Part shown: in pieces, positions 32,486 through 52,148 of the stretch
Position numbering within the stretch: the first letter of the stretch is position 1
Layout: each line of letters begins with the position of its first letter
Assembly (NCBI GenBank): GCA_964608035.1
Contig: CAZSNV010000001.1
Coordinates: 1 to 53,893 of the forward strand
Reading direction: 5' to 3'
From: an uncultured Gemmatimonadaceae bacterium
GTDB lineage: Bacteria > Gemmatimonadota > Gemmatimonadetes > Gemmatimonadales > Gemmatimonadaceae
DNA: 53,893 nt
Made by a program: the position numbers and the translations under genes
Notes under the pieces: generated by a model
Told to the model about the DNA's origin: nothing
Seen by the model: only the letters and a program-made list of their open reading frames with translations
The model's database searches: none

Positions 32486-34459
32486 GTGCAAGTGGGTAAC
32501 CGAGCTGAATCGGCGCTTGAGTCGGAAACTGAATCTCCACCCAGAGAACACGTGGCGACTTCCGGGCCTCTTTTGTTTAATGACCGAGCGCTGAAGGGGG
32601 AGGCGGCGCTAGGTGAGCCGCAGGTACGGGCGACGAGCCGCGTTGAGTGGTGGTTTTGGCTCGCCGTGGCATGGGTCGTTGGAGGCCTCTACATGCTGTA
32701 CTTCGTCGATCGGGGCTGGATCCCCCACGACGAAGGTACGCTCGCACACAGTGCAGAGCGGGTACTGGGTGGTGAGATGCCGCACCGCGACTTTGCCGAC
32801 CCATACACAGGTGGGCTGAGCTACCTCAACGCTGTTGCATTCAAAGTCTTCGGCGTTCATCTCCTCGCCATTCGCTACCTGCTTTTCGCCGCATTCGTCA
32901 CCTGGGTTCCCCTCCTCTACTATGCCGCCACACGCCTAGCGTCGCCGCCCGTCGCAGGAGCCGTGACGCTATTGGCAGTGTTCTGGAGTGTTCCGAACTA
33001 CCCCGCGGCCATGCCCAGTTGGTACAACCTGTTTTTCGCAACCGGTGGTGTTGCAGCGCTGCTTGCGTACATCGATTCCGGGAAACGCCACTGGCTCGTC
33101 GTTGCCGGCCTTGCTGGGGGCTTCTCCGTGCTAGTTAAGACCACAGGCGTGCTGTTCGTCGGCGCTGGTCTCCTATTCCTGCTCTATCATGAATCGCGGC
33201 CCACCAATCCTCTACGCGAGTACCGAAAGAGCGGGACCCTATTCAATCTCGCTGCAGGCTTTCCGCTAGTCATTGCTGCGATCGCGCTCGTCGCTATTAG
33301 CATGTCGCGCGGGAGGTGGGTGGATGTGTACCAGTTCGCCGTTCCAGGGTTCGCGATGGTTGGCACGGTTGCATGGGAGCTGTTTCGGGCGCCGGGGCCT
33401 TCGGTCACAGCCGCGAGGCTGACCGTCGGTGCCGTCGTTCCGTACATGCTTGGCGTGGCAATTCCTCTGGGGGCGTTCGCCGCCTATTACGCGATCGCGG
33501 AAGCTCTTCCGGAGCTGGTGCGAGGCGTCGTCAGTCTTCCTACAAGACGGTTTGACCACGCTTCGGTGAGCCCCGCGCTGCCGTATGCGGTAATTCCTAT
33601 GGCGCTCGCAGCTTTCGTCGCCATCGACACAAAAGGGAAGGCGCCCCGCGTCGCGCTCTTCCAGCACGCCATTGCGATCGCGGTGGTTGCAGTAACACTC
33701 GTGCCGAAACTGGCCTTGGAGTTGGAACCGATGGTTTGGCAGTCGCTGGCGGAGGCCACGCCGATAGTCGTAGCACTCCTCGCGATCATCACTGTGCGGA
33801 ACAGCATACGCGGCGGCGTTGATCCGAAGCAGCAGTCGCGATCCGTTCTCGTGGGCTGCGTGGCGGCTTTCTGCAGCTTGATCCAGTATCCGTTCGCCGC
33901 GCCGATCTACTTTAGTTACTCCCTACCGCTTTTGTTGCTCGCGGTTGTCGCGTTGGCTCAATCGACTACTCTCGTGCGAAAGCGAGCACTCCAAGGACTC
34001 ACTTGCGTCTACTTGCTGTACGGGGCCTTGTTCATCACGCCAATGCAAGTCCAAGGACTCCTTGGGCCGGTGTCCCGGGATGATGTCGCCCTTCTCAAGC
34101 TGCCACGTGCCGGCCTTCGCGTCGGACGCGAGGACGCGGAACAGTATCCCAAGGCTGTGGAACTCCTGCGAACGCACACGACCTCCGGTGTGACATACGC
34201 GGGACCCGATGCGCCGGAGGTGTACTTCCTTGCTCAGTTAAGAAACCCTACCCCGGCGATCTTCGACTTTCTCGTCCCCGACACTCTTTTTCATCAACAC
34301 TTGGTTCAGAGCCTCGATTCGTATGGCATCAACGCGGTGGCCCTCAGACGCCGCGTCGTGCACTCCGCCCCGCTGGAACCGGAGATTCAGGCTGCGCTCG
34401 AAACCAAGTTCCCGTCCGCGCATGAGGCGGGACGCTTCACGATTCGGTGGAAACCATGA
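32486..34459 (+). CDS. GT-C fold membrane glycosyltransferase (ArnT/PMT-like) with C-terminal soluble domain
   Basis: First loop IPHDEGTLAHSAERVLGGEMPHRDFADPYTGG. >12 TMs. The start is uncertain (GTG 32486 or GTG 32552). Confidence 0.7.
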   Translation: MQVGNRAESALESETESPPREHVATSGPLLFNDRALKGEAALGEPQVRATSRVEWWFWLAVAWVVGGLYMLYFVDRGWIPHDEGTLAHSAERVLGGEMPHRDFADPYTGGLSYLNAVAFKVFGVHLLAIRYLLFAAFVTWVPLLYYAATRLASPPVAGAVTLLAVFWSVPNYPAAMPSWYNLFFATGGVAALLAYIDSGKRHWLVVAGLAGGFSVLVKTTGVLFVGAGLLFLLYHESRPTNPLREYRKSGTLFNLAAGFPLVIAAIALVAISMSRGRWVDVYQFAVPGFAMVGTVAWELFRAPGPSVTAARLTVGAVVPYMLGVAIPLGAFAAYYAIAEALPELVRGVVSLPTRRFDHASVSPALPYAVIPMALAAFVAIDTKGKAPRVALFQHAIAIAVVAVTLVPKLALELEPMVWQSLAEATPIVVALLAIITVRNSIRGGVDPKQQSRSVLVGCVAAFCSLIQYPFAAPIYFSYSLPLLLLAVVALAQSTTLVRKRALQGLTCVYLLYGALFITPMQVQGLLGPVSRDDVALLKLPRAGLRVGREDAEQYPKAVELLRTHTTSGVTYAGPDAPEVYFLAQLRNPTPAIFDFLVPDTLFHQHLVQSLDSYGINAVALRRRVVHSAPLEPEIQAALETKFPSAHEAGRFTIRWKP

Positions 34460-34830
34460 CTCTTCTCGACCGCATCATGGGCAAGCCGTTGATCTATCGG
34501 CTCTGGCAGGCGCGATTCGCGCCAAGCAAACTGGCTCCAGTTTTGGCGCGTCAGGACGTCGCAAGCGTTCGGCGCGTCCTGGATGTCGCGTGCGGACCCG
34601 GTACCAATGCCGGGTATTTCGACAGCGAGAGTACGTGGGCGTCGATCTGAAGCTTGCGGTGCGCGCCATCGAGGCGATCGTACCCCGACGCGCGGTTCCA
34701 GAACGTGTCCCGCGTCCCTGACTCAACGACCTTTTGCGTCGAATGAGCATTGCCGAGTCGCGGCTCTTTGCTCGCGGATCACTGCCGTTTGGTTCGTCAG
34801 TGATCCGCTGGTGTCGCCCCTACGCCGCGT
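34456..34830 (+). pseudogene. Fusion remnant of two methyltransferase genes, homologs of 23002..23601 and 24582..25346, with the intervening ~1.9 kb (including the GT2) deleted; frameshift plus internal stop
   Basis: MTLLDRIMGKPLIYRLWQA...VLDVACGPGTNA matches MT1. After a frameshift, EYVGVDL joins directly to KLAVRAIEAIVPRRAVPERVP*LN..L...AE.RL.A...LPFGSSV..WCR, which matches the MT2 C-terminus. Confidence 0.65.
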
Positions 34831-35055
34831 AGCGGCATCGGCGGGTGGTGTCCGATCGTAGTTAAAGCACTGCGAAATCGATGCCCTCTGCGTCTGCACT
34901 TCGCGTGCTGCCTGACGCTGCCCGGGTCCTGCCAATCCTGACTTCACCAGCGGCGTCGATCAGGTGTGGGCAGGGCGGAATCCGGAACGTGTGGCGCCAG
35001 GAGCGACTGAGTCAGTCAGGCTCGCCAAATCGATAGGACCGTCACACCGAGCGGC

Positions 35056-36642
35056 TCACGGCCGCGCGCCGCGAACGCTAGTCGTGGCGTTCGTCAGGAT
35101 GTCCGCGTTCATCGAATCCACGACGACTCGCCACCTCCGCCAGTCTACCGATCGATGAGTGGCTGTAATGCGGTACGTGGGCAACGTGGTCGCTTCACAT
35201 TGCGAGGAGAATACGACAATTGCGCTTAGGGGTCTGGTTCCCCGAAACTGTTCAATCTCGCCGCAACGAATGTCCCGCGTCGCTGGCCATGGGCGATCCG
35301 TCGCAGCTGCCAATCTGTACAGCGTGGGGCCTAGACCGATCCAAGGCGGGTTCGCCGCGCGAACCGTACCGACGAAAACGGAATCGATACCGTGCTGAGA
35401 AGCGACTGTGGCTACAACCTGATCTGCGGCGCGTTGCACAGCATCTGTTCTCGACGCGTGCGCCGCAGCACCGCTTGATCCAAATGCACCTATCACAAGC
35501 CACGCCAGACCGCCGGCTAACATTCCCATCCTCCAGCGCCGCTGCAAGTGGCTCGCGGCCAGCCCGATCAGCAGCGAGGTGGCAACAAGATAAGGGAAGG
35601 AGTAACGCTCCTCATACGTCGGCCATGGAGCGTACGAGAGTACTCCCACTACCGGGAATGCGATCGCTGCGATGAAGAGGCTCTTCGCACGCTCTCGATC
35701 GGTTGCGTGATGGAACGCCATCCACCAGCCTGACGTCAACAGGCCAATGAAGCTTACGACGGCTGCTCCCCACATGATTGATGTCTGCCGCGGGCCGAGC
35801 TCGAATGGCACGAGCGTGCTGAGCCAGATCGCCAGCATCCCCCCTAACGACTGCATCCCACTTCCGTATTGGGAAGCCAACGCCGTCGAGGAGGCGTTCA
35901 GGTAGACAACGGCGAGTGGGATGAGAGTCGCAAGCGACACGACACCGACCGCACTCACAAGCGCAATATTGCGTTTGCTCCAGAGCGGTCGCGAAAACCC
36001 TCCATCCGTCTGCGAGGCAACCGCCAGGTAAACAGGAAGGAGGAGAACCGGCGCCATAAGCTCCTTCGTCAGGATCACGAACACCGCGCCAAATGCAAAC
36101 CACCATAGGTCAGGCCTCCACCGTTGGCGGTTCTGAAAACCGGTCGCGCGTAACGCAAGTGCGAGGACGCACACCATGGCCATTGGTTCAGCCATCGTCA
36201 GGCGCACCCACCCCCGCGCGGCCGAAGGTGCGAACAGGAAGACCGACGCCCCTGCAGCGGCGCCGAAGACGGTGGCGCCGAATCGTCGAAGAAGCAGAAA
36301 CGACTGCGCGGTAACGATACCCATGATCGCAGCCTGCACGAGCTGCCAGCCCGGCATCCAGTCCCCGAACCACCTCCACTTCAGGACGGCGGCGAGAACC
36401 TGCAACACGTTGGCGCGCCCTGATTGCGTGATACCGTAATCAAGTACGCTCGAAAACTGCTCAGTCCAACTCTCGGTGGCCTTCAGGAGAGGGATGAACT
36501 CACCGAAGTCGAGCACGTCGAATGGACGGACTCGATCAGGGCGGTACAACGCCCACGCAACGAGAATCCCTGCGACGGCCCAAAACAGAATCCCTGCTCG
36601 GGAGCGTTGATTGTCAGCAGGTCTTGACAGCGACACAATCAC
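35056..36642 (-). CDS. Polytopic membrane protein, divergent GT-C-like (paralog of 44028..45554)
   Basis: Conserved AWALYRP(D/E)..RPFD..DF.E motif straight after TM1. W(R/S)WFG(D/N)W(M/T)PGWQL motif. LTKE/WTKE motif. GTG start overlaps the aminotransferase stop (GTGA). Confidence 0.6.
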   Translation of the reverse strand: MIVSLSRPADNQRSRAGILFWAVAGILVAWALYRPDRVRPFDVLDFGEFIPLLKATESWTEQFSSVLDYGITQSGRANVLQVLAAVLKWRWFGDWMPGWQLVQAAIMGIVTAQSFLLLRRFGATVFGAAAGASVFLFAPSAARGWVRLTMAEPMAMVCVLALALRATGFQNRQRWRPDLWWFAFGAVFVILTKELMAPVLLLPVYLAVASQTDGGFSRPLWSKRNIALVSAVGVVSLATLIPLAVVYLNASSTALASQYGSGMQSLGGMLAIWLSTLVPFELGPRQTSIMWGAAVVSFIGLLTSGWWMAFHHATDRERAKSLFIAAIAFPVVGVLSYAPWPTYEERYSFPYLVATSLLIGLAASHLQRRWRMGMLAGGLAWLVIGAFGSSGAAAHASRTDAVQRAADQVVATVASQHGIDSVFVGTVRAANPPWIGLGPTLYRLAAATDRPWPATRDIRCGEIEQFRGTRPLSAIVVFSSQCEATTLPTYRITATHRSVDWRRWRVVVDSMNADILTNATTSVRGARP

Positions 36643-37784
36643 CGATCGAGGCTCGGGAGTGATTTCGACTGACTCCAGGCAGGTGCGGTCGCATGAAGTG
36701 CGTCGATCACGCGGGCCTGCTGTTCGCCCGTTAGGTGCGGCCCCAGCGGAAGGCTGAGAACCTCGTCGTGCAAGGTCCGCGCGATGGGGAAGTCATCCGG
36801 CGCAAATCCCATGCTCGAATACGCATCCTGCATGTGCGGCGCCACCGGATAGTGCACGATCGTTTCGATGCCTGAATCCTGGAGCGACTGACGCAACGCG
36901 TCACGCCCTGCACACCGAATTACATAGAGATGCCATACCGGGGCGGCCCACGGTGGCACGATCGGCAGCCGCAAAGGAAGTCCTTCGAGTGCTTCCGAAT
37001 AGGTTCGGGCATTATGGGTTCGCCGCTCATTCCATTCGTCGAGCTTCGACAGTTTCACTCGCAGAATGGCGGCCTGCAGTTCGTCGAGACGACTGTTGTA
37101 ACCAATGACCTCGTTCACGTACTTCTGCCGTGATCCGTAGTTGCGCACTACGCGCAGCTTATCGGCCAGAACGTCGTCATCGGTAGTCACTGCACCGGCA
37201 TCTCCCCAGGCGCCGAGGTTCTTCGTTGGATAGAAGCTCCACGCGGTAGCGTCCGTGCTGGTTCCGATCGCGCGCTTCCTGTAACGGGCGCCATGCGCCT
37301 GCGCCGCATCATCCACGACGCGCAGACCGTGCTCGCGGGCCAACTGCAGGATTGGATCGAGATCCGCCGGCTGGCCGTACAGGTGCACCGGCGCAATCGC
37401 GCGAGTCCGGGGCGTGATTGCCGCGCGTATCCGATCGACGTCGATGTTGTAGGTCGCAGGATCGGGTTCTACAGGAACCGGCGTTGCGCCGGCGTGGGTC
37501 ACGCCGAGCCAGGTAGCTACGTACGTGTTTGACGGCACAACGACTTCGTCGCCGGCTCCAATGCCAAGAGCGCGAAGCGACAGATGAATGGCTTCGAGTC
37601 CGTTCGCAACTCCAACGCAGTGTCGGGCACCGACATATTGCGCGAACTCTGTCTCGAACGCGCGTAACTCCGCCCCCAGCAGATACCACCCACTCGCCGA
37701 AACCCGACCGATTGCGTCGTCAAGCTCGAGACGCAACTCGTCGTACTGGGGTCGTAGATCCAGAAACGGGATGTTCGCGTTCAT
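36639..37784 (-). CDS. DegT/DnrJ/EryC1/StrS aminotransferase; by context dTDP-3-amino-3,6-dideoxy-hexose transaminase (FdtB/QdtB-like)
   Basis: PLP-aminotransferase pattern (NGLEAIHL, DDAAQAHGA, SFYPTKNLGA). ATGA overlap with the fdtA-like gene. Confidence 0.8.
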   Translation of the reverse strand: MNANIPFLDLRPQYDELRLELDDAIGRVSASGWYLLGAELRAFETEFAQYVGARHCVGVANGLEAIHLSLRALGIGAGDEVVVPSNTYVATWLGVTHAGATPVPVEPDPATYNIDVDRIRAAITPRTRAIAPVHLYGQPADLDPILQLAREHGLRVVDDAAQAHGARYRKRAIGTSTDATAWSFYPTKNLGAWGDAGAVTTDDDVLADKLRVVRNYGSRQKYVNEVIGYNSRLDELQAAILRVKLSKLDEWNERRTHNARTYSEALEGLPLRLPIVPPWAAPVWHLYVIRCAGRDALRQSLQDSGIETIVHYPVAPHMQDAYSSMGFAPDDFPIARTLHDEVLSLPLGPHLTGEQQARVIDALHATAPAWSQSKSLPSLDR

Positions 37785-38185
37785 CGCGCCCCGCCGACTC
37801 CCAACTCATCGAGCGATCGGATGTAATCACCGGCATCGTACCGGTCCGACGCCAGCACCAGCACGACGGTATCCGGCGCGAAATCGCTCTGTTCTCCCCA
37901 GACCATCGGCGGAATATGAACACCAACGGCCGGCGACGAGAGCATGATATCGTCGCGTCCATTCGTGTCGATCAAGGTCAGCCGACACGATCCCCGCGGG
38001 ACGATTACGAACTGATGGCAGTGCTTGTGTGCATGAGCGCCGCGAACTGCCGTAGCAGGCACGTCGCAGACGAGAAAGAAGCGTTTGGGCTCGAATGGCA
38101 GCGCCGCACCGAGTTCCCCGACGCTCAGCATGCCGCGGGCGTCGCTGAAAGTCGGCAGTTGGACGATTCGCGCGCTTGTTCTCAT
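37781..38185 (-). CDS. dTDP-4-keto-6-deoxyhexose 3,4-ketoisomerase (FdtA/WxcM-like cupin)
   Basis: F.DARG.L...E....PFEPKRFF....P....RG.HAHK.C.QF...RGS, and LASD.YD..DYI. Confidence 0.8.
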   Translation of the reverse strand: MRTSARIVQLPTFSDARGMLSVGELGAALPFEPKRFFLVCDVPATAVRGAHAHKHCHQFVIVPRGSCRLTLIDTNGRDDIMLSSPAVGVHIPPMVWGEQSDFAPDTVVLVLASDRYDAGDYIRSLDELGVGGAR

Positions 38186-38320
38186 CGACTCGTCGACCTC
38201 GTTACTGACAGTTGCCGTCCTTCGAGCGCGGCGCCATCCTCCAGCGGCGAGGTTGCCTCGGCTGGTCCGGTGGTCCGGACGGTCGACGACATTCCGGGAG
38301 TGAGGCGCACCCCTTTCCTC

Positions 38321-39244
38321 ATGAAGACCCTGTCGGTTGTCATTCCGGTCTACTACAACGAAGAGTCGCTCCCTCTGTTGTTCGAGGAGCTGCGTACCGT
38401 GGAGCGGGCGCTCGCCGAGCGAAACCTCGCGCTGGAACTCATCTTCGTGGACGATGGATCCGGCGATCAGTCATATCGGGAGCTGATTCGCATCAAGGAG
38501 CAGCGCTCGGCAACGCGGCTGATCAAGTTAACACGGAACTTCGGCGGCGTGCACGCGGTGAAGGTGGGCTTCCAGTATGTCACCGGCGACTGCTTCGTGA
38601 TGCTCGCCGCCGACGGACAGGATCCGCCCGACATGATCGTCGCCATGGCCGATCGCTGGCTGGCGGGCTCGAAATACACCGTGTGTGCCCGCGCGGGCCG
38701 CTCTGATCCGTTGACGAATCGCATATTCTCGAATCTCTACTATCGACTCGTCAGGCTCTACGTCGCCAAGGACTACCCGTCCACCGGTTACGACCTGGCG
38801 CTCATGGACAAGGCGATGCTGGGGTACCTGCAGACGAGCGCGAAGAACATCAACACCCCGCTGTTCGCCTACTGGCTGGGGTTCAAGCCCACCGTCCTGA
38901 CATACGAGCGGCGAAAGCGCATTCACGGCAGGAGCCGGTGGAGCTTCACCAAGCGAGTCAAGTTCATGCTCGATTCGCTGCTCGGATTCTCCATCGTGCC
39001 CATCCGCATGATTTCGCTGATCGGCATCCTGGTCTCGATTCTCAGCTTCGGGTACGGCCTGGTCGTTGTGTTCTCGGCGTTGCGCGGGGGACCCGACGTT
39101 CCTGGCTGGGCCAGCATGGCCGCGCTCGTATCGTTTCTGCTGGGGCTCGCGATCGTCATGCTCGGTGTGATCGGCGAGTACGTCTGGCGGATATTCGACG
39201 AAGTGAGTCGACGCCCCGAAGCCGTGATCGAGGAAGTGCGATGA
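38321..39244 (+). CDS. Polyprenyl-phosphate glycosyltransferase GT2 (ArnC-like) with 2 C-terminal TMs
   Basis: LSVVIPVYYNEE, VDDGSGDQS, RNFGG, and AADGQDPP motifs. C-terminal LGVIGEYVWRIFDEV. The upstream 264 codons of the tracked ORF are antisense to fdtA/fdtB. Confidence 0.85.
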   Translation: MKTLSVVIPVYYNEESLPLLFEELRTVERALAERNLALELIFVDDGSGDQSYRELIRIKEQRSATRLIKLTRNFGGVHAVKVGFQYVTGDCFVMLAADGQDPPDMIVAMADRWLAGSKYTVCARAGRSDPLTNRIFSNLYYRLVRLYVAKDYPSTGYDLALMDKAMLGYLQTSAKNINTPLFAYWLGFKPTVLTYERRKRIHGRSRWSFTKRVKFMLDSLLGFSIVPIRMISLIGILVSILSFGYGLVVVFSALRGGPDVPGWASMAALVSFLLGLAIVMLGVIGEYVWRIFDEVSRRPEAVIEEVR

Positions 39245-40212
39245 GGACGCGGTACGCGCCCTGTCCGATAGACGAGAACCTCGAACTGATCGTCAACGGC
39301 GCGTTGGACGGGACCGATCTGGACCTGTTCAACCTGCGTGCCTTTCAGGACCTCCACGCGCCGGACGCGCTACGCAGTTTCCATTCGGCACTGATCGACC
39401 GCCGGTCCGGTGCAGTCACGGCCACGGTGCACTTTCACGAACGGTCGGCGGGAGAGATGGCGAGCCCATTCCGCGGGTCATTCGGCGGCTTCACCGTGGT
39501 TCCCGGCGCGCCGCTCACAATTGCGGAAATGGTTGCTTTCGTTGGCGCCGTAGAGGCGCATCTGGTGACTGAGGGCGCGACACGATTGAGCGTAGTCATG
39601 CCGGCGCTTGCGTACCACCTTCCCGAGACGTCAACCTGGATCGATATCCTGCTGCGCCGCGGGTTCAACGTTTCGCGGCACGAACTGAGTTACGGGATCA
39701 ACGTAGTCGGGGAATTCGTGGATCGAATCGATTCCGGCAACCGGAAACGACTTCAGAAGTGCATCCGCGACGGACTGATGGCCTCAAGCCTCCCCCGATC
39801 TGAGTTCGAGACTGCCTACCGAGTCGTGGCTGAAAATAGGAGCAAGCGGGGATACACGTTGTCGATGTCGTGGCAGACATTCGTTGCAATGGCAGACGCG
39901 TTGCCGGATCACGTCACCTGCTTCGCCGTCAAGCGCGGCGCTGATCCAATCGCAGCCGCCCTGTGTCTGCGCATCAACAGTCACGCGCTGTACGTGGCGC
40001 ATTGGGGCGAGATTGCCGGCGTCGAGGCGTGGAGCCCGGTGACATTCCTCGCCAGTCACCTGTTCGAGTACTGCCGCGCAGCCGACATCCGGCTCCTGGA
40101 CCTCGGCACTGCCAACATCGATGGCGCTCCAAATCACGGCCTGATTCGGTACAAGAAGAACCTCGGTTGTTCCGAAAGCCTGAAGCTCACGCTCGACAAG
40201 CGGTTCTCGTGA
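39241..40212 (+). CDS. FemAB/CelD-like GNAT-fold acyl(aminoacyl)transferase (PF13480-like)
   Basis: ...FAVKRGADPIAAALCLRINSHALYVAHWGE... and GLIRYKKNLGC resemble the BioF2/FemAB-like acetyltransferase fold. ATGA overlap with the upstream GT2. Confidence 0.6.
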   Translation: MRTRYAPCPIDENLELIVNGALDGTDLDLFNLRAFQDLHAPDALRSFHSALIDRRSGAVTATVHFHERSAGEMASPFRGSFGGFTVVPGAPLTIAEMVAFVGAVEAHLVTEGATRLSVVMPALAYHLPETSTWIDILLRRGFNVSRHELSYGINVVGEFVDRIDSGNRKRLQKCIRDGLMASSLPRSEFETAYRVVAENRSKRGYTLSMSWQTFVAMADALPDHVTCFAVKRGADPIAAALCLRINSHALYVAHWGEIAGVEAWSPVTFLASHLFEYCRAADIRLLDLGTANIDGAPNHGLIRYKKNLGCSESLKLTLDKRFS

Positions 40213-40946
40213 GAGATCTCGACCGATACCAGTCGGAATACGTTGCGACCTATGGATTCGAGGCCCACATGGTCCGGTACCGGCGACGCCAGGTCCTCAA
40301 GTGCCTGAGGGACTATTCGCACCGCCACGTGCTCGAAGTGAGTTGTGGGCTTGATCCACTCGCACATTATGTCGATGACTGGGACACTTACATCGTCGTA
40401 GAACCAGGGGCCACCTTCGCGGCGAATGCTCGCGAGTTAGCCAGCAAAGGCAAGCCGTTTGTCGTGCACGAAGCGACCATTGAGCAGGCGGCGACCGTGC
40501 TGACCGGTCAACATTTCGATTTCATCGTCGTATCCGGGCTCATTCACGAGGTCGTTGCTCCTCAGCAGGTTCTGGGAGCCGTCCGAACACTCTGCGACGA
40601 TGACACGATCGTGCACGTCAACGTTCCCAACGCGCGGTCGCTGCACAACAGGCTGGGATTGAGGATGGGCCTGATCCCCGATCTTTTCGCGCTGTCACCG
40701 CTCGCCGAGCGCCTTCAACGCAAGAGCACGTTTGACTTGCGATCGCTCAGCGACTTCGTGCGCCAGGCAGGCTTCGAGGTTGACTCATCCGGCTCGTACT
40801 TTCTGAAGCCGTTCACGCATGAGCAGATGCAACAGATGCTGGATCAGGGCGTCATCGATGTGCGCGTGCTCGACGCGCTATTCGACGTCAACGAGGAGTT
40901 CAGCGATCTCGGAGCCGAGATTTTCGTGAACCTGAAACGCCGATGA
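40209..40946 (+). CDS. SAM-dependent methyltransferase
   Basis: VLEVSCGLDP, and FDFIVVSGLIHEV. The GTG start overlaps the upstream stop (GTGA). Confidence 0.7.
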   Translation: MRDLDRYQSEYVATYGFEAHMVRYRRRQVLKCLRDYSHRHVLEVSCGLDPLAHYVDDWDTYIVVEPGATFAANARELASKGKPFVVHEATIEQAATVLTGQHFDFIVVSGLIHEVVAPQQVLGAVRTLCDDDTIVHVNVPNARSLHNRLGLRMGLIPDLFALSPLAERLQRKSTFDLRSLSDFVRQAGFEVDSSGSYFLKPFTHEQMQQMLDQGVIDVRVLDALFDVNEEFSDLGAEIFVNLKRR

Positions 40947-41006
40947 GCGACAGTCAGCTCACCTTGCTGGTGCGGGTAGTGACATTGCCGCGACAAGCCT
41001 AACGAC

Positions 41007-41891
41007 CTATCTGGACGAACTACCAGGTTCTCGCAGCAGAGACCGCAGGTAGACTCCGTACGAAGAGTTTCCCAGCGTGTCTGCCAGCCGCTCAAGCTCT
41101 TGAGCCGTGATATAGCCCTGCCGGTAGGCGATCTCCTCCGGGCACGCGATTTTTAGTCCCTGCCGTGACTCGATTGTCTGGATGAATGAACTCGCATCCT
41201 GAAGCGATTCGTGCGTTCCCGTGTCCAGCCATGCCATACCGCGGCCCAGCATCTCGAGATGAAGCGTGCGGCGGCGCAGGTACTCGCGGTTCACGTCCGT
41301 GATCTCGTACTCGCCGCGGCTGGAAGGTCGCAGACCGCGCACGATCTCGAGCACTTCATTGTCGTAGAAATAGAGGCCCGCAATGGCGTAGTTGGAGCGA
41401 GGCCGCTCAGGTTTCTCTTCGATGGATAGAACGCGTCCGTCGGCATCGACCTCAGCTACGCCGTAACGCTCCGGGTCCTTGACATAGTAGCCGAAGATCG
41501 TAGCGCCAACCGGCCGTGACGCGGCGCGGTGAAGGAGTCCCGTCAGCCCGCCGCCGTAGAAAATGTTGTCGCCAAGGACGAGGGATACGGGTGCCGAGCC
41601 AACAAACTCGCGTCCAATGGTGAACGCCTGCGCCAGCCCACCCGGCGTTTCCTGGACTGCGTATTGCAAGCTCAATCCCCATTGTGTTCCGTCGCCGAGC
41701 AGTTCCGAGAAGCGCGGCACGTCCCTTGGCGTCGAAATGACGAGAATATCCCGAATGCCCGCCAGCATCAGCGTCGTCAGCGGATAGTAGACCATCGGCT
41801 TGTCGAACACCGGAAGCAGCTGCTTGCTGATCACCCGTGTCACCGGGTACAGCCTTGTGCCCTCTCCCCCAGCCAGGATGATCCCTTTCAC
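41007..41891 (-). CDS. rfbA: Glucose-1-phosphate thymidylyltransferase
   Basis: [17 protein letters not shown]...[18 protein letters not shown] at 41891 overlaps the rfbB stop (GTGA). Confidence 0.9.
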
Positions 41892-42955
41892 TGGTCTCCT
41901 CCCAGTCCAAGGCGATGGCCCCGATACCCGCCGCTTCGGATCCGTTGCCACCACGCATCATGGTCCGCGTACCAGCGAACGGTATCGCGTAACGCCGAGT
42001 CGAAATCCGTCGAGGGGCGCCATCCGAGTTCCTGGCGGAGTTGCGTGGCATCAATCGCGTATCTGAGGTCGTGCCCGGGTCGATCGGTGGTGAACTCGAT
42101 GAGCTGACGGCGCGATCCCGGTTTGTCGCCCAGCAGCGCGTCGACGCTGTCGCAGATTGCATGGGCGACATCGATATTGCGCCGCTCGTTTTCCGCGCTG
42201 ACCACGTACGTTGCTCCGGGGGTTCCGCGGCGAAGCATCAGCAGAAGGGCCGCGACATGATCGGTCACGAAGAGCCAGTCCCGGACGTTTTCTCCACGTC
42301 CGTAGATAGGAATCGGTTTTCCTTCGAGCGCGTTGAGAATGGTCAATGGAATCAGCTTCTCGGGAAACTGAAACGGACCAAAATTGTTCGAGCAGTTCGA
42401 CACCATGGTTGGCAGGCCGTAAGTCCGTTGCCAGGCGCGAACAAAGTGGTCTGCCGACGCCTTGCTGGCCGCGTAGGGAGAACTCGGATCATATGGGGTA
42501 GTCTCGGAGAAAAACCCGGTGTGCCCCAATGATCCGAAAACCTCGTCCGTTGATACATGAAGAAACCGAAAACTATCCCCCGCGCCGGCATCCAATGACT
42601 GCCAGTATTCGTGCGCCTCGCGAAGCATCTCGAACGTGCCAACCACATTGGTCTCGACGAATGGCGCCGGACCGTCGATTGAACGGTCTACATGCGTTTC
42701 GGCGGCGAGGTGAATGACGTACTTGGGCCGGTGCCGGTCGAAGATCCGACGGATCGCAGGAGCATCGCAGATGTCTGCGTTTTCGAAATGGTACCGGGGG
42801 CTACCCGCAACCGATGCCAGGGAATCAAGGTTGCCAGCGTAGGTGAGTTTGTCGATGTTGACGACGTTGCCGGCCGCTTCCCCAATCAACGCACGTACCA
42901 GAGCTGAGCCAATGAAACCCGCGCCACCGGTAACCAGATAGGTTGTGTCGGACAT
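41888..42955 (-). CDS. rfbB: dTDP-glucose 4,6-dehydratase
   Basis: [15 protein letters not shown](F/Y)G, YAASKA. The start is at ATG 42955. Confidence 0.9.
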
Positions 42956-43031
42956 AGCCCCTGGAAGGGTGACCAACAATTTGGGACGCGATCAGCCCCT
43001 CGCGCCACGTCCAGCACCTGAACCACCGTCG

Positions 43032-44021
43032 GTGAAACAGCGGCTTATGGTCGCCGCGGTGATTGGATTCGTGTGCGCACTTTACGTCGTAATGCACGGA
43101 CGTGCCAACCCTGATTTCACGAGCGATTTCGATCAGGTTTGGGCAGGGGCCCGCGCGCTGTGGCAGGACAAGGATCCATACACCGTCGTGGGACCAGGGC
43201 GGGAGTTCGGTTGGCGATGGCCGCTGTATTATCCTCTCCCCGCGCTCGTCACCGTCGCTCCGTTAGGCCTGCTGCCCGTGCTTGCCGCGCGCGCGATCTT
43301 TGGCGGGATGTCCGCGGCCCTTCTCGCATGGGCGATTACGCGCGACGGCTGGAGCCGACTCCCCATCTTCCTCAGCGTCTCCTTCATGGTCACGATGGAG
43401 CTTGGTCAATGGTCGGCGCTCTACGCCGCTGCGTTCTTCATCCCGGCGCTAGGAGCCATTGGCATCGCAAAGCCGAACTTCGGGGTCGCTCTGGCCGCGG
43501 CAGCGCCTCGACAACAGACGCTGGCGTGGCTCGCCGCGGGCACGTTCGCCCTTCTCGCCATCAGCCAGCTCCTGCAGCCGGGTTGGCACGAATCCTGGCT
43601 CGACAACCTCCGCGCCGCCGACCACTTCAAGCCGCACGTGCTGCGGCCCTTCGGTTTCCTCCTTCTGCTGGCCGCCCTCAAGTGGCGGCGGCCGGAAGCG
43701 CGATGGCTGCTCGCCCTCGCCCTCATTCCGCAGGCCCCATCGTTCTACGATCAGCTGCTGCTGGCCGTGGTCTGCCTGACGAGAGCGGAGGCGCTTGTCT
43801 TTGCGTCCGCCACTATCGTGTTGTTTTTCTATGTGGGGTTCAACACGCCACAGCCGGACTATGAATCCTGGGGACGCATGGTCGGCAATGGAACGCTCTG
43901 GATCTGCTACTTCCCGGCGTTGGTGATGGTGTTGCGGCGGCCTAACGAGGGAGTGATGACAATACCCTTCTCCTGGCTGGATCGGATCGGGCGTAACAGC
44001 AAACGCGATGTGCGGTCGTAG
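43032..44021 (+). CDS. GT87/DUF2029-like GT-C membrane protein (paralog 2 of 3)
   Basis: SDFDQVWAGARALWQDKDPY, then an aligned TM pattern. The start is ambiguous (GTG 43032 or ATG 43047). Divergent from rfbB. Confidence 0.6.
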   Translation: MKQRLMVAAVIGFVCALYVVMHGRANPDFTSDFDQVWAGARALWQDKDPYTVVGPGREFGWRWPLYYPLPALVTVAPLGLLPVLAARAIFGGMSAALLAWAITRDGWSRLPIFLSVSFMVTMELGQWSALYAAAFFIPALGAIGIAKPNFGVALAAAAPRQQTLAWLAAGTFALLAISQLLQPGWHESWLDNLRAADHFKPHVLRPFGFLLLLAALKWRRPEARWLLALALIPQAPSFYDQLLLAVVCLTRAEALVFASATIVLFFYVGFNTPQPDYESWGRMVGNGTLWICYFPALVMVLRRPNEGVMTIPFSWLDRIGRNSKRDVRS

Positions 44022-44027: not shown

Positions 44028-45554
44028 ATGACGCGCTCGGATGCACGCATGGACTCCCTTGAGGGACCTGACCGGACTACAGGACGGATTCTCCTCATTC
44101 TGCTCATAGTGAGCGCCTGGGCTCTGTATCGGCCGGAACTCGCCCGTCCTTTTGACTATGTGGACTTTCCCGAGGACATCCTCGTCCTTCAGCCGCATGA
44201 GGGCCTCCGGGAGCAGTATGAGACACTGTCGCAGGTGTACGCCGCCCACGGACGCTGGAAGCCAATCGCGAATGCGCTGTTGGCGGGCCAGTGGTCCTGG
44301 TTTGGGAATTGGACGCCGGGGTGGCAATTGGCACGCTTCGCCGTAATGGTCGCTGTCCTTTTCATTTCGTTCTCGTTGTTTCGCAAGCTTCGATTGGGTC
44401 CTGCAGGCGCCTTCGCCGCTGCCGCAGCGCTTGTCGTATCGCCTCCAGCCGTGATGGGTTGGCTGCGACTCAGCACGCCAGAGCCGGTCGGTCTATTGCT
44501 GTTGGCAATCGCGTGTCATGTGGCTCTGGCGCGCGCAAAGCTTGCGCCGTGGCTCCTGGCATTGCTGCTGCTTGGCGTGATGTGGACGAAAGAGATCATG
44601 ACCGCAGCGTTTGTGGTGCCTGCCCTTCTGGTTATCACCTCGAGCGACAATGGCTCACTCAGGAAGTTCCAGTTCGATCGCCAGCGACTGTTGATGCTCA
44701 TGCCGTCATTCCTGGTTCTCGTCGTGGGCTCGCTCCCGATCTTGTGGACCTGGCGGTCTTCTCCTCCCGACTCGTTCGCCTCGCGCTACGCTAGCAGCGG
44801 CATATCGTTCGCGGATATCGCGGGCGGGTCGCTCGCCGCATGGCTCCCCTTCGCGCCTGTGCCAGAACCCTCGCGCCTTGCGCTGCTTGTCGTGATTGTG
44901 GCGTTTCTTGTCCTCATCGTCGCCGGCTGGCAGCAGGCATTGGAACCAGATGAATTGCAGGGGCACCGTCGGGTTGTTCTCTTACTCGCTCTTGGTGTGC
45001 CGGTTCTCGGTGCTGCGATGTATTCACCTTGGCCGTTCTATCTTCTCATTTACGCGCTTCCGTTTGTGCTCGCCGGGTCCCTCCTTATGGGCCAGGCCGT
45101 GTCTTCGCTCAGCGTCGTGCGGCATTTGCGCGCCATCAGCCTCTCGTGCCTGACGATTGTGTTGACCTACGCCCTGGCGCAGGCGGCCAACGAATCCTCG
45201 CGCATGCGCGCGCTGCACCGGGCGTTCGCGGAATCGGTCACCCGCGTCGCCGCTATGCAGAATGTGGATACTGTCCTGGTGGACGTTGCGATGAACCAGT
45301 ATGACAGCCGCGGGAATTTCGGACCGAGATTCAAGAACTACGCAAGGATGCTGGGCCTTGAGTGGCCGCATGTCGTCGACGTACCGTGTGCTCGCCCGGG
45401 CGCGTTGGGTCCGAGGACTATTCAACTGCGTCTCAATCTGATGTGCGCCATTGAGGGGACTGTCCCGTCTCTCGTCGAGCGCTTCGCGCGATTTGACTGG
45501 CCGAATCCCCGTCCCCAGCGTGACAGCATCACAGTTTCCTTTCTGGCTAACTGA
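44028..45554 (+). CDS. Divergent GT-C-like polytopic membrane protein (paralog of 35056..36642)
   Basis: AWALYRPELARPFDYVDFPED, WSWFGNWTPGWQL, and MWTKE. Confidence 0.6.
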   Translation: MTRSDARMDSLEGPDRTTGRILLILLIVSAWALYRPELARPFDYVDFPEDILVLQPHEGLREQYETLSQVYAAHGRWKPIANALLAGQWSWFGNWTPGWQLARFAVMVAVLFISFSLFRKLRLGPAGAFAAAAALVVSPPAVMGWLRLSTPEPVGLLLLAIACHVALARAKLAPWLLALLLLGVMWTKEIMTAAFVVPALLVITSSDNGSLRKFQFDRQRLLMLMPSFLVLVVGSLPILWTWRSSPPDSFASRYASSGISFADIAGGSLAAWLPFAPVPEPSRLALLVVIVAFLVLIVAGWQQALEPDELQGHRRVVLLLALGVPVLGAAMYSPWPFYLLIYALPFVLAGSLLMGQAVSSLSVVRHLRAISLSCLTIVLTYALAQAANESSRMRALHRAFAESVTRVAAMQNVDTVLVDVAMNQYDSRGNFGPRFKNYARMLGLEWPHVVDVPCARPGALGPRTIQLRLNLMCAIEGTVPSLVERFARFDWPNPRPQRDSITVSFLAN

Positions 45555-45633: not shown

Positions 45634-46605
45634 GTGAAGACCGGCGACCGGGCCGTTACCGCGCTCGCTCTGGGCGGCTGGGGCGCGTTCATCGCGTACT
45701 TCTCGATGGTTTCGCACCCGCAACACCTCGCCAAGGACTTCTCGTACCCCTGGCGCGCCGCGCGCGCCCTGCTCGCCGGCGACAATCCCTATGAGGTCAT
45801 GCGGGCCGTCGGCGAGTACCCGTTCAACGCCGGGTTGCTGTATCCACTCCCCGCCGCCCTCGTCGCCACACCATTTGCTCCCCTGCGACCCGAGATCGCT
45901 GGCGCCCTCTTCGTGGGACTCTCCGCCGCGCTCCTCGGCTGGGCCGTGCTTCGCGATTGCCCGTACCGCCTCCCGCTCTTCATCAGCGCTCCCTTCGTCC
46001 AGGCTGCAATCCTCGGCCAATGGTCGCCGCTCCTGACCGCGGCTGCGCTGATGCCCACACTGCAGTTCCTGGCCGCGGCCAAACCGACCGTTGGCCTGGC
46101 GGCCTGGCTTTACCGCCCGTCGCTCAGGGGAATCATCGGAGGACTGATCCTCGTCGCCGCCGCATTCCTCGTGCTGCCGCAATGGCTGGGCGACTGGCGC
46201 GAGGTCTTGGGGAGCACCAACAAGTACCGCGGGCCGGCGACGACCTTGTTAGGCGCTTTCCTCCTCCTCGGCCTGCTCCGCTGGCGGCGGCGCGAAGGGA
46301 GGCTCTTCGTCGCGATGTCGCTGATTCCCCAGCTCCCAGTCTTCTACGACTCGCTGATCCTCTGGCTCATTCCGTCCACGCTCTGGCGATCTCTCGCTCT
46401 CTCCGCGGCGAGCTGGGTCGGTTACCTCGCCTGGTATCCCAGCCGGGCATCACCACTCCAAAACGAAATCGCGTTCCCTTGGCTCGTCTTAACCATCTAC
46501 GCTCCTGCGCTCGTGCTCCTGCTACTGCTACCGGCGCGGGAAGAGCCCGAAAAAACGCAGAGCGCAGATTCCGGATTACAGGTCGCAGGAAAAAGCGAGC
46601 AGTGA
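45634..46605 (+). CDS. GT87/DUF2029-like GT-C membrane protein (paralog 3 of 3)
   Basis: KDFSYPWRAARALLAGDNPY. GTG start. Collinear with the other two paralogs. Confidence 0.6.
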   Translation: MKTGDRAVTALALGGWGAFIAYFSMVSHPQHLAKDFSYPWRAARALLAGDNPYEVMRAVGEYPFNAGLLYPLPAALVATPFAPLRPEIAGALFVGLSAALLGWAVLRDCPYRLPLFISAPFVQAAILGQWSPLLTAAALMPTLQFLAAAKPTVGLAAWLYRPSLRGIIGGLILVAAAFLVLPQWLGDWREVLGSTNKYRGPATTLLGAFLLLGLLRWRRREGRLFVAMSLIPQLPVFYDSLILWLIPSTLWRSLALSAASWVGYLAWYPSRASPLQNEIAFPWLVLTIYAPALVLLLLLPAREEPEKTQSADSGLQVAGKSEQ

Positions 46606-46619: not shown

Positions 46620-48200
46620 TCACTCGCGGTTACGACCCACGGTTTCAGCCAGCATCCGCACGACCGCTGTATCGGTTCGAATCGCACCAAGCCGCCGACT
46701 GAGCAACGCAACACGAAGGTCGGCGCCCACGGGGCGAGCGCGCCGCAGCGATTCTATGGCCCTCCGCTGGTCACCCATCGTCAGGTACGCCAGCGCCAGG
46801 TACTCCGCGTCACGGACGCTGAACTGCGTTCCTGACGCCAGCCAGGCCACGGTGAGACCCATGACCTGCTGCCTGGCCTCGTCCACGTTGCTCGCGCCGT
46901 TGGAAATCAGGACACGCAGCGCCTGCGGCCAGGCCCCCGTCGCCAGACGTCTCACCATTTCAGCGTCCGAGTATGCGTCTCGCGTGTCGGCCAGTCGCAG
47001 CCTCGCTTCGGCGCGAACAGCATAGGGCAGCGGATCGTACGGCCACGCCGCGATGCTGGCGTTGCTCAGAACGCACGCCGAATCCCACCGCGACCCCTGC
47101 AGGTCCATCCAGGACAGCGCCGCGAGCGTCGTGGCTCGGCCGGGTGCCAGCGCCAGTGCCCGCCGGAATCGGGCTTCCGCTAAACGCGAATCGCCAAGTC
47201 TCAGGAGCGTCATTCCGTATTCGTGTTCGGCGTCCGCATCACGAGGATCGGTGCTGACCGCACGGAAATGAGCCGCCGACGCCCCCGTGAACCGGATCGG
47301 GTCCATCACGCGCGCCAGCATCGCCCTGATGGTCCAGCCCTCGGCGCTGGTGTCGGAGGGAAAAGCGCGGCCAATCAGTTCGCTGACGCGCCGCGGACCA
47401 GCGGCACCGGGATATCCGGGGATCTCACCGCCACGCTCGAGGCTCGTCACAGAGGCTCGCGCCAGCCGTGCCGCTGCCACCGTAGATCCGGGATCGAGGG
47501 CGAGTGCCCGTTCGTAGAAAACAATGGCCGAGTCGGAACCGACACGGGTCGTGGATCGCAGATACGCATCACCGGCCAGGATCGCGTCATGACCCTCGTC
47601 ACTGGTTGGCCACCCCTTCGGCATTGGTGGCGCCGCAGGCAAACCCAGCGCGCGCGACAGGCCACGTACGATTCCATCCTCGACGGATCGCAACGACGTG
47701 GTGGCACGGAAGGTTGCTCGCCACACCGGCACGGCCTGGCCGCGGCGCTGGAGTACGACTTCCACCTCCTGTTGCGAGCGGATGAGGAGCAGCCTGCCCG
47801 ACACCAGGTACTCGGCGCCGAGGAGCACACCCGCCGAATCCTGGCGGGAGCGCGCGTCGCTCATTGCACGGGCAACGCTCCCTTCAGAGGCGATGCGCAA
47901 GCGAGGGTCCTGCGCCAGTCGCTGGCGAATCCGGTCCGGTAGCGCAACCGCGAGGTACACCCGCCCCGCATCATCGACGTCGGGCTGAAGCGAGAAGACC
48001 GCCACCTTCCGACGCGAATCGCGACCAGCGTCGCTGGCCCAATAGCTGAGAAGGGCGGGCGCAGCAAAGCTGGCGCGGCAAGGCGGAGGCGGCGCGAGTC
48101 GCGGAAACTGCGCAGCCGCCGGCTGCGCAACGAAGACCACTAACAAGGTCCCGATGGCGGCGCGAGTGCTTGACACGTTCAAATAATAGGCAAAGGCCAT
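46620..48200 (-). CDS. Secreted tetratricopeptide (TPR) repeat protein
   Basis: Signal peptide from ATG 48200 (MAFAYYLNVSSTRAAIGTLLVVFVAQPAAAQ). Repeated A..(F/Y)..AL.L.P TPR-like units. Confidence 0.7.
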   Translation of the reverse strand: MAFAYYLNVSSTRAAIGTLLVVFVAQPAAAQFPRLAPPPPCRASFAAPALLSYWASDAGRDSRRKVAVFSLQPDVDDAGRVYLAVALPDRIRQRLAQDPRLRIASEGSVARAMSDARSRQDSAGVLLGAEYLVSGRLLLIRSQQEVEVVLQRRGQAVPVWRATFRATTSLRSVEDGIVRGLSRALGLPAAPPMPKGWPTSDEGHDAILAGDAYLRSTTRVGSDSAIVFYERALALDPGSTVAAARLARASVTSLERGGEIPGYPGAAGPRRVSELIGRAFPSDTSAEGWTIRAMLARVMDPIRFTGASAAHFRAVSTDPRDADAEHEYGMTLLRLGDSRLAEARFRRALALAPGRATTLAALSWMDLQGSRWDSACVLSNASIAAWPYDPLPYAVRAEARLRLADTRDAYSDAEMVRRLATGAWPQALRVLISNGASNVDEARQQVMGLTVAWLASGTQFSVRDAEYLALAYLTMGDQRRAIESLRRARPVGADLRVALLSRRLGAIRTDTAVVRMLAETVGRNRE

Positions 48201-48208
48201 GCCTGAAA

Positions 48209-48245
48209 CCCGAAAAAGAAGGACCGGAGCGATGGCTCCGGTCCC
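48209..48245 (-). terminator. Rho-independent terminator after the TadG-like gene at 48265..49488
   Basis: ggaccggagc-gatg-gctccggtcc stem-loop, followed on the minus strand by ttcttttt. Confidence 0.75.
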
Positions 48246-52137: not shown

Positions 52138-52148
52138 GGCGACTCTCG

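Follow-up and report, generated by a model that had tools for sequence, protein, structure and literature searches.

Organisation of the locus

We analysed a stretch of 53,893 nucleotides from an uncultured Gemmatimonadaceae bacterium (contig CAZSNV010000001.1 of assembly GCA_964608035.1; hereafter the window), which has a G+C content of about 62%. The span 35056-42979 carries eight genes in three co-directional groups (Table 1), which encode predicted enzymes for an activated 3-amino-3,6-dideoxyhexose, a polyprenyl-phosphate glycosyltransferase (PI-GT) of family GT2, and a membrane glycosyltransferase with a GT-C fold. We consider it fairly probable that together they form a system of extracytoplasmic glycosylation, of the kind that combines GtrB or ArnC with a GT-C enzyme, and that this system brings a modified 3-amino-3,6-dideoxyhexose to the cell surface.

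Table 1. Genes of the putative glycosylation module, with positions in the window
Product	Position	Strand	Length (aa)	Remarks
RfbB	41888-42958	-		dTDP-glucose 4,6-dehydratase; likely start ATG at 42958; longest open reading frame reaches 42979
RfbA	41007-41891	-		glucose-1-phosphate thymidylyltransferase; GTG start at 41891
FdtA/QdtA-type cupin	37781-38185	-	134	predicted dTDP-4-keto-6-deoxyglucose 3,4-ketoisomerase
DegT aminotransferase	36639-37784	-	381	predicted C-3 sugar aminotransferase, DesV/QdtB/FdtB type
GT-C-fold membrane glycosyltransferase	35056-36642	-	528	Gemmatimonadota-specific family
GT2 (PI-GT)	38321-39244	+	307	ATG start at 38321; GtrB/ArnC/DPMS type
Fem-type tandem-GNAT transferase	39241-40212	+	323	candidate aminoacyl-tRNA-dependent N-acylase of the 3-amino sugar
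SAM-dependent methyltransferase	40209-40946	+	245	

A preliminary description, made from the sequence alone, had already proposed these eight genes; open reading frame (ORF) and family-profile checks found all of them in place, with the predicted domains. The FdtA-DegT-GT-C and GT2-Fem-methyltransferase trios are transcribed divergently, as that description had it, with a 135-bp gap between the FdtA and GT2 genes, and RfbB-RfbA is convergent with the second trio. The 4-nt overlaps listed for both trios were all read in the sequence: ATGA between FdtA and DegT and between GT2 and Fem, GTGA between DegT and GT-C and between Fem and the methyltransferase. A fifth overlap, missing from that list, joins the rfbB stop to the rfbA start (GTGA, with a GGAGA Shine-Dalgarno sequence before it). 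The five overlaps show translational coupling within FdtA-DegT-GT-C, GT2-Fem-methyltransferase, and RfbB-RfbA. At 42945-42979, the longest ORF of rfbB (-) overlaps the 5' end of that of a divergent 358-aa membrane protein (+, GTG at 42945), whose true start is probably further downstream, e.g. at the Met at about 43047.

A predicted pathway to a dTDP-3-amino-3,6-dideoxyhexose

RfbB and RfbA both score above the equivalog cut-offs of NCBIfam (TIGR01181 at 3e-136 and TIGR01207 at 9e-144, respectively), and RfbB also matches PF16363 (8e-85). Genes for RfbC and RfbD (RmlC and RmlD) had been reported as absent, and we agree: no large ORF of the window has a Pfam match to RmlC or RmlD, and tblastn with RmlC-like queries returned only noise.

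The cupin matches PF05523 (7e-42; 142.7 bits against a cut-off of 23), and its profile search gave no match to dTDP_sugar_isom, the family of the RmlC-type epimerases. Among solved structures, its closest relatives are the ketoisomerase domain of FdtD from Shewanella (4zu4, 8e-31), FdtA (2pa7, 1e-26), and QdtA (1e-21). Residues H51 and H53 (RGAHAHKH) align with RGFHAHKK of FdtA 2pa7 and RGEHAHKE of FdtD 4zu4; these paired histidines are reported to be the catalytic residues (Davis et al. 2007). On these grounds, the protein is predicted to be an FdtA-type 3,4-ketoisomerase, which is how it had first been read. The cupin scores higher with FdtD and FdtA than with QdtA, which for the configuration at C-4 is at most a hint of galacto (Fuc3N) over gluco (Qui3N).

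The aminotransferase matches PF01041 (1e-119). Its six best matches in the PDB (2e-125 to 7e-95) include the C-3 enzymes DesV (2e-125), QdtB (1e-109), and WlaRG (1e-95), whereas the C-4 enzymes come lower: perosamine synthase at 3e-65, ArnB at 1e-57, and WecE-type enzymes at about 2e-35. Judged by these search scores, it is predicted to group with the C-3 enzymes (DesV, QdtB) and not with ArnB or WecE, i.e. on the FdtB/QdtB side of the divide. The proposal of a dTDP-Fuc3N/Qui3N-type sugar is thus retained as far as the C-3 ketoisomerase and aminotransferase pathway goes; the final product is probably modified further.

A PI-GT orthogroup associated with FdtA across phyla

The GT2 protein aligns over its full length with GtrB (5e-53, residues 4-303) and ArnC (2e-35, residues 2-306), C-terminal membrane helices included, and its hydrophobic segments start at residues 216, 235, and 260. 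We therefore class it as a polyprenyl-phosphate glycosyltransferase, in line with its initial description as an ArnC-like enzyme. Its D158 aligns with D157 of GtrB, the proposed catalytic residue of that enzyme (PMC4728340). The DXD site, which binds metal and diphosphate in its canonical form, reads A96-A97-D98 and retains only the second Asp, where GtrB has D94-x-D96 and both GtrB and ArnC read DAD. The AAD motif is kept in 118 of the 120 best PI-GT homologues, with the second Asp and the D157 equivalent retained, and is therefore a mark of the orthogroup rather than a defect of the window copy. It might be related to the use of dTDP rather than UDP.

The orthogroup is large: 4387 proteins match at E<=1e-30. 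Over 100 of these, from many phyla, have a length of 307 aa and an identity of 60-67%. We sampled five orthologous loci in other phyla, from Chthoniobacterales (L028), Syntrophomonas (L029), Nitrospirae (L030), Acidobacteria (L031), and Deltaproteobacteria (L032), with PI-GT identities of 58-91%. FdtA adjoins the PI-GT in all five. DegT is present in four, whose contigs extend far enough; the deltaproteobacterial contig shows none. A gene for GtrA lies immediately downstream of the PI-GT in L028, L029, L030, and L032, an Acetyltransf_6 (Fem-like) gene lies immediately upstream in four of the five loci, and a large polytopic membrane protein (PMT_2-like, YfhO-like, or unclassified) adjoins the cassette in three. 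The Syntrophomonas locus additionally carries RmlA, RmlB, and an FdtA-hexapeptide fusion. In the Acidobacteria, a homologue (30% identity) of the window gene at 28557-30293 is divergent from DegT-FdtA-GT2.

Since this PI-GT occurs with FdtA, and mostly with DegT, in at least six phyla, it is probably a general synthase of a lipid-linked Fuc3N/Qui3N derivative. The strong evidence of gene neighbourhood points to a dTDP-3-amino-3,6-dideoxyhexose derivative as the donor of the orthogroup. The preliminary description had called the routing of such a sugar through a lipid monophosphate unusual. We found otherwise: the route is widespread, with the PI-GT next to FdtA in every sampled phylum, and it has a genetic precedent in wxcK-O of Xanthomonas (PMC4878081, PMC12573098). 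Our literature search found no published demonstration of the lipid-linked intermediate or of a PI-GT assay with a dTDP-sugar, and no explicit statement of an undecaprenyl-phosphate-linked Fuc3NAc intermediate or of WxcL as a PI-GT. To our knowledge, a PI-GT that uses a dTDP-sugar has never been demonstrated.

The modules of other phyla have further recurrent genes that are not in the window. One encodes a conserved protein (about 304 aa, 40-55% identity between phyla, faint matches that are GH43-related or to GH130) and occurs together with the genes for the hexapeptide acetyltransferase, the Fem-like protein, and the PI-GT; it lies at 4819-5733 and 9022-9933 of L028, 6107-7021 of L030, 4148-5062 of L032, and 3673-4590 of L002. 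A PhyH-family dioxygenase and a TylF-type methyltransferase are also often present.

A GT-C family specific to Gemmatimonadota

The 528-aa protein has no Pfam match at E<=0.01, so it is not a sequence member of ArnT/GT83 (PMT_2, PF13231), and its only match in NCBIfam is WsfD with 16 bits against a cut-off of 80. We built an AlphaFold2 (AF2) model with an alignment of 22 relatives (predicted local distance difference test score, pLDDT, of 86.8). The best Foldseek matches of this model are ArnT structures (5f15/5ezm; E 5.5e-6, template modelling (TM) score 0.48-0.50), followed by STT3, AglB, PglB, AftD, Pmt4, and AftB, and every one of matches 1-24 is of the GT-C type. GT-C enzymes have a catalytic acidic residue in the loop after the first helix. 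Among the 22 family members, D45 is invariant and E48 nearly so, and both lie in the model in the loop after the first transmembrane helix, between helix 10-33 and helix 50-55. The modelling thus backs the early notion of a GT-C-like membrane protein: the predicted fold is GT-C with ArnT as best structural match, and the predicted role, though not the sequence, is ArnT-like.

The family yields 27 matches in a set of 5.8 billion proteins and 472 cluster representatives among 1.84 billion; in species-representative genomes, it is found in Gemmatimonadota only (19 loci). Relatives with 48-56% identity (L002, L003, L005) keep FdtA-DegT-GT-C and RfbB-RfbA together and, where the contig allows, also GT2, the Fem-like gene, and the methyltransferase. 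L003 has the set FdtA-DegT-GT-C, RfbB-RfbA, and GT2-Acetyltransf_6-methyltransferase; L002 has the same set, with an extra PMT_2 gene; L005 has FdtA-DegT-GT-C and RfbB-RfbA. The gene organisation is therefore conserved among relatives, and the GT2-FdtA association extends to the five other phyla.

For the genes of more distant members (about 30% identity), the divergent neighbours are in nearly all cases a 4,6-dehydratase-like short-chain dehydrogenase/reductase and a PseC/ArnB-like C-4 aminotransferase. Across the family, an aminotransferase gene lies next door in about 19 of 23 loci, so it looks like an amino-sugar-transferring GT-C lineage. The window itself encodes at 44028-45554 (+) a 508-aa membrane protein that is a paralogue of the 528-aa GT-C (27-30% identity, phmmer 1e-54), and thus holds the lineage-specific family twice. 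One locus is a clear exception: in L001 (1852-11587), the gene of the 528-aa GT-C orthologue comes after a different deoxysugar set, made up of a nucleotidyltransferase, a dehydratase, a TylCIII-like C-methyltransferase, an RmlC-like protein, two reductases, a CmcI-type methyltransferase, and two GT2s. Specificity for the donor seems to change rapidly within this family.

A putative Fem-type transferase and a methyltransferase

The protein encoded after the PI-GT matches PF13480 (Acetyltransf_6) at 2e-7, with 31.7 bits against a cut-off of 22, and FemAB_like (PF04339) at 8e-5, with 22.4 bits and thus under the cut-off of 27. Its AF2 model has a pLDDT of 94.7. The eleven best Foldseek matches of the model are all aminoacyl-tRNA-dependent enzymes: Sbb17/Sba18 (TM 0.74/0.82), FemX (0.69/0.67), and FemA. 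MprF and aminoacyl-phosphatidylglycerol (PG) synthases come next, and tandem GNATs that use acyl-CoA are clearly lower (TM 0.4-0.5). Sbb17 and Sba18 were crystallised with an amino-sugar compound, streptothrisamine. When the family profile was compared with the PDB, FemX was the sole match (E 0.0075); a search with the single sequence gave no match. Invariant in the family is a Lys about 15 residues past a DLG motif (K305 in the window copy, where a Tyr comes before it), which may parallel the Phe-Lys of FemX. The initial assignment to FemAB/CelD-like acyltransferases holds for the Acetyltransf_6 match and the Fem-like fold; we would add that the predicted fold most resembles that of the aminoacyl-tRNA-dependent enzymes.

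Homologues with 31-39% identity occur in Nostoc, in the unclassified metagenome-assembled genome (MAG) GCA_030012885.1, and in a Bacteroidia MAG. DegT is present at all three loci and FdtA at those of Nostoc and GCA_030012885.1, with none detected in the Bacteroidia MAG, whose cassette contains a PI-GT 32% identical to the GT2 of the window. The Acetyltransf_6 genes found in the other phyla belong to a second Fem-like subfamily. By hhalign, it is a homologue of the window protein across 271 columns (98.8%, E 9e-17), and the two share the C-terminal Lys motif. This subfamily accompanies a hexapeptide acetyltransferase gene in L028, L029, L030, L032, and L002, and the Fem-like enzyme is therefore not just a replacement of FdtC. 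In the window, tblastn with homologues of the hexapeptide (left-handed beta-helix, LbH) N-acetyltransferases found none. Because this acetyltransferase was not found and the Fem protein resembles aminoacyl-tRNA-dependent enzymes, N-aminoacylation and methylation of the sugar may take the place of N-acetylation, and the product is probably not plain Fuc3NAc.

The methyltransferase matches PF13489 (1e-11) and otherwise only generic class-I profiles. Its orthologue is always the next gene after the Fem-like one in L003, L024 (Nostoc, 40% identity), L026, and L027. We rejected the idea of an N,N-dimethyltransferase of the TylM1/DesVI type: the sole PDB match is the hypothetical protein 2p7h (1e-6).

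These four loci, from Gemmatimonadota (L003 9085-12945), Nostoc (L024 10001-15434), GCA_030012885.1 (L026 8513-13704), and Bacteroidia (L027 10001-15831), share a cassette of the Fem-like gene, the methyltransferase, a Rossmann/FAD-like protein of about 450-470 aa, a second methyltransferase, and DegT, with FdtA in all but Bacteroidia. The window keeps the first two genes; the flavoprotein-like gene of about 470 aa and the second methyltransferase are not present in it. The gene set loosely recalls the chemistry of the BD-12 pathway, with a glycyl transfer followed by a FAD enzyme. In that pathway, the FemABX-like Orf11 aminoacylates an amino sugar from Gly-tRNA (PMC12945691). A PDB search gave the flavoprotein no sequence match, and thus no link to the FAD enzyme of BD-12.

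Proposed route and its weighing against alternatives

Direct tests support the enzyme classes and folds. We infer the donor of the PI-GT (from gene neighbourhood), the donor and acceptor of the Fem-type enzyme, the order of acylation, methylation, and lipid transfer, the pairing with the GT-C, and the final acceptor. RfbA and RfbB would produce dTDP-4-keto-6-deoxy-D-glucose, the FdtA-type cupin would shift the keto group to C-3, and the C-3 aminotransferase would give dTDP-Fuc3N or dTDP-Qui3N. The Fem-type transferase would then acylate the 3-amino group; since no hexapeptide N-acetyltransferase is present, the likeliest acyl group is an amino acid delivered by aminoacyl-tRNA. The methyltransferase would methylate the acylated product. 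At the inner face of the membrane, the 307-aa PI-GT would move the sugar from dTDP to polyprenyl phosphate. After flipping, a GT-C enzyme, for which the 528-aa ArnT-like protein is the best candidate, would transfer it to an acceptor in the envelope, probably a polysaccharide. The span 35056-42979 encodes no Leloir-type glycosyltransferase.

Several observations weigh against this reconstruction. The closest solved relative of the PI-GT, GtrB, uses UDP-glucose, and the first Asp of the DXD site is an Ala in the orthogroup. We found no candidate for a GtrA-, SMR-, or MATE-like flippase in the window: in a six-frame screen, the ORFs of 70-260 aa all had fewer than three hydrophobic segments, tblastn with four GtrA from related modules found nothing, and no flippase family came up when the window ORFs were scanned with Pfam and NCBIfam. 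The Fem-like assignment consists of a predicted fold, one weak profile match, and the possible motif parallel, and an acyl-CoA donor is possible. The GT-C orthologue of L001 (59% identity), the closest one with long flanks, has other deoxysugar genes around it, with no FdtA or DegT nearby, and PMT_2-type GT-Cs are part of the cassette or adjoin it in L002, L003, and L031, so the pairing of the GT-C with the sugar is loose. Finally, the window also encodes the paralogue at 44028-45554, PMT_2-like proteins at 28557-30293 and 32486-34459, and two more membrane-anchored GT2s, and therefore the enzyme pairings are not unique. That the 528-aa GT-C transfers this amino sugar is thus uncertain.

Two accounts of the acylation deserve consideration. 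Tentatively, and at a confidence well below that in the module as a whole, we suggest that the Fem-type enzyme loads an amino acid from aminoacyl-tRNA onto the 3-amino group of the dTDP- or lipid-linked sugar, which would then be methylated and carried by polyprenyl phosphate to the GT-C. Alternatively, the protein might be an ordinary acyl-CoA-dependent GNAT that replaces FdtC/QdtC, so that the product would be plain Fuc3NAc or Qui3NAc, O- or N-methylated. This is a serious possibility, if short of a probable one: Acetyltransf_6, the only Pfam family matched above its cut-off, is a GNAT domain, acyl-CoA-using tandem GNATs are among the fold matches (though with lower TM scores), and the window has no other N-acyltransferase. 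Yet the best fold matches and the sole PDB profile match all point to aminoacyl-tRNA-dependent enzymes, and in five loci the homologous Fem-like gene sits beside a hexapeptide acetyltransferase.

It is also conceivable, if rather unlikely, that the lipid route is right and that one of the PMT_2-type GT-Cs (32486-34459 or 28557-30293) transfers the sugar, the 528-aa family handling a different one. The position of a PMT_2 gene within the FdtA-DegT-GT-C block or next to it in L002 and L003, the divergent acidobacterial homologue of 28557-30293, and the absence of FdtA near the L001 orthologue fit this view, as does the abundance of candidates in the window (at least four GT-C-fold proteins and three membrane-anchored GT2s). 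However, the overlap couples the 528-aa gene to that of the aminotransferase, the order FdtA-DegT-GT-C is kept in L003, L005, and, with one inserted gene, L002, and the 528-aa family adjoins an aminotransferase gene in most of its loci.

We regard it as improbable that the amino-sugar genes and the membrane GT2 are mere neighbours. The GT2 would then make polyprenyl-phosphate-glucose or another common sugar, and the dTDP-sugar would go to a cytoplasmic Leloir glycosyltransferase encoded elsewhere in the cluster, e.g. the soluble GT2 at 25542-26351. The similarity to the UDP-glucose enzyme GtrB could be read this way, the wider cluster does have other GT2s, one without membrane helices, and in Nostoc the series Fem-methyltransferase-FdtA-DegT is followed by a large soluble multidomain glycosyltransferase, not a PI-GT. 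On the other hand, in all five sampled phyla the 307-aa GT2 is found amid FdtA, Fem-like, and GtrA genes (with DegT in four), often as the sole glycosyltransferase of the cassette; in the window, it is translationally coupled to the Fem-like and methyltransferase genes, and at other loci these two keep no partners but FdtA and DegT. Finally, a deoxyaminosugar for a secondary metabolite, made by a mycaminose- or desosamine-type pathway, is very improbable: the best match of the aminotransferase is DesV, from macrolide biosynthesis, and a methyltransferase gene is present, but the window lacks genes for polyketide synthases, non-ribosomal peptide synthetases, or macrolide glycosyltransferases, the methyltransferase has no match to TylM1 or DesVI in the PDB search, and the genes are surrounded by those for membrane glycosyltransferases and an ABC-2 permease.

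Comparison with known systems

The nearest counterpart is wxc region 3 of Xanthomonas campestris and X. hortorum, which gives the rhamnan O-antigen its Fuc3NAc side branches. There, wxcK encodes a dTDP-3-amino-3,6-dideoxygalactose transaminase, wxcL a glycosyltransferase, wxcM an isomerase-acetyltransferase fusion, wxcN a small membrane protein, and wxcO a membrane protein (PMC4878081, PMC12573098). Likened by gene descriptions, the region and the window have in common the 3-amino-3,6-dideoxyhexose aminotransferase, the 3,4-isomerase, a glycosyltransferase, and a large membrane protein. Mutants of wxcK and wxcN lose the FucNAc branches of the lipopolysaccharide (LPS) and have a lengthened rhamnan backbone, and the branch is described as added after the synthesis of the main chain (PMC4878081). 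All five genes wxcK-wxcO came out as necessary for infection by a phage for which the Fuc3NAc branches are the proposed recognition site, with individual confirmation for wxcK, wxcO, and a deletion of the whole region (PMC12573098). The two systems differ in that Xanthomonas has the WxcM acetyltransferase fusion and WxcN, whereas the window has neither an acetyltransferase nor GtrA, and instead a Fem-type transferase, a methyltransferase, and a Gemmatimonadota-specific GT-C. WxcN is reportedly GtrA-like, and WxcL reportedly similar to bactoprenol or dolichol-phosphate glycosyltransferases (Vorholter et al. 2001). The lipid-linked intermediate is likewise putative in Xanthomonas, where the system is known from genetics.

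The Arn pathway, which adds L-Ara4N to lipid A, also uses an aminotransferase, a GT2 (ArnC) that transfers the N-acylated form to undecaprenyl phosphate, and a periplasmic GT-C (ArnT). It differs from the window module in the nucleotide (UDP versus dTDP), the sugar (a 4-aminopentose versus a 3-amino-6-deoxyhexose), and the aminotransferase, which in the window falls in the C-3 clade. The acceptor of Arn is lipid A, and nothing ties the window module to lipid A. The Arn logic put forward in the preliminary description is therefore kept for the aminosugar, the PI-GT, and the GT-C, and given up for the rest: the screen of the window gave no small polytopic ORF as a candidate ArnE/F-like flippase, and Pfam and NCBIfam scans of the window ORFs gave no ArnA/ArnD-type domains. 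The module is thus Arn-like in logic only.

The Gtr systems of O-antigen modification follow the same scheme, in which a PI-GT (GtrB) charges polyprenyl phosphate, a flippase (GtrA) exports the product, and an acceptor-specific GT-C (GtrC) decorates outside the cytoplasm. A relative of this three-component type is the pentofuranose system of Kelly et al. 2024 (PMC11127046). Donors in these systems are UDP-Glc or, in the pentofuranose case, a pentose derived from phosphoribosyl pyrophosphate (PRPP), whereas the donor in the window would be a dTDP-linked modified amino-deoxysugar. The GtrA flippase is present in the modules of other phyla and was not found in the window, and the AAD motif of the orthogroup contrasts with the DXD of GtrB.

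Enzymes of the FemABX type also act on sugar amines, like Orf11, Sba18, and Sbb17 in streptothricin-type antibiotics, or, like FemX, on a nucleotide-linked substrate, UDP-MurNAc-pentapeptide. The window protein resembles them in its model (TM 0.74/0.82 to Sbb17, 0.69 to FemX); it has only marginal sequence similarity to them, and its context is an envelope-glycan sugar, not peptidoglycan or antibiotic synthesis.

Genomic surroundings

The module lies within a glycan super-cluster of about 25 kb (21187-46605), which includes an ABC-2 permease (21187-22470), four methyltransferases (22621-23601, 24582-25346, 30321-30872, and 40209-40946), three membrane-anchored GT2s, one soluble GT2, and at least four GT-C-fold proteins. 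Polytopic proteins of some 350 aa are encoded by three paralogous genes (27431-28504, 42945-44021, and 45634-46605) and have only faint similarity to GT87. A UbiA-family gene (26389-27393, -; PF01040 at 6e-25) lies under a longer ORF in another frame (26348-27436), 'orf362', which we rejected as a gene because it is a shadow frame of UbiA. UbiA-like genes also adjoin fdtA in L003 and L005 and are present in L002. Taken with the many GT-C genes, this suggests a system with polyprenyl-phosphoribose (pentofuranose) as the donor, comparable to that of Kelly et al. 2024 or the decaprenylphosphoryl-arabinose (DPA) system of mycobacteria.

A gap of 596 bp (34460-35055) separates two convergent GT-C genes. 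The 67-aa ORF at 34447-34650 (+; VLDVACGPGTNAGYF) resembles the N-terminus of a SAM methyltransferase and may be a decayed or frameshifted gene. Directly downstream of the super-cluster, a Tad/Flp pilus locus (46620-53893, -) encodes a tetratricopeptide repeat (TPR) protein, two TadG-like proteins, TadB/TadC-like T2SSF proteins, and a TadA-type ATPase; we found no evidence of a link between this locus and the glycosylation genes.

Implications

Periplasmic three-component glycosylation is well documented, with glucose, GlcNAc, galactose, Ara4N, GalN, and pentofuranoses as the sugars transferred. In the case of 3-amino-3,6-dideoxyhexoses, the evidence for it is the genetics of Xanthomonas. None of our observations overturns current concepts. 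What is new is, first, a variant in which a Fem-type transferase and a methyltransferase replace the N-acetyltransferase, with a lineage-specific GT-C and no flippase gene, second, the recognition of a conserved PI-GT orthogroup with an AAD motif that is tied to FdtA and DegT genes across phyla, and third, a candidate for the enzyme behind N-aminoacyl amino sugars. Gemmatimonadota have their own GT-C family, consistently linked to amino-sugar genes.

N-(aminoacyl) amino sugars occur in many bacterial surface polysaccharides. The Fem-type transferase, which may be tRNA-dependent, is a regular member of the cassettes and gives a concrete candidate for the enzyme that makes them. If this reading is true, the translation machinery would feed directly into the biosynthesis of envelope-glycan sugars, and the Fem-like gene that is widely found upstream of the 307-aa PI-GT would encode the enzyme that has long been missing from the synthesis of N-(aminoacyl) amino sugars.

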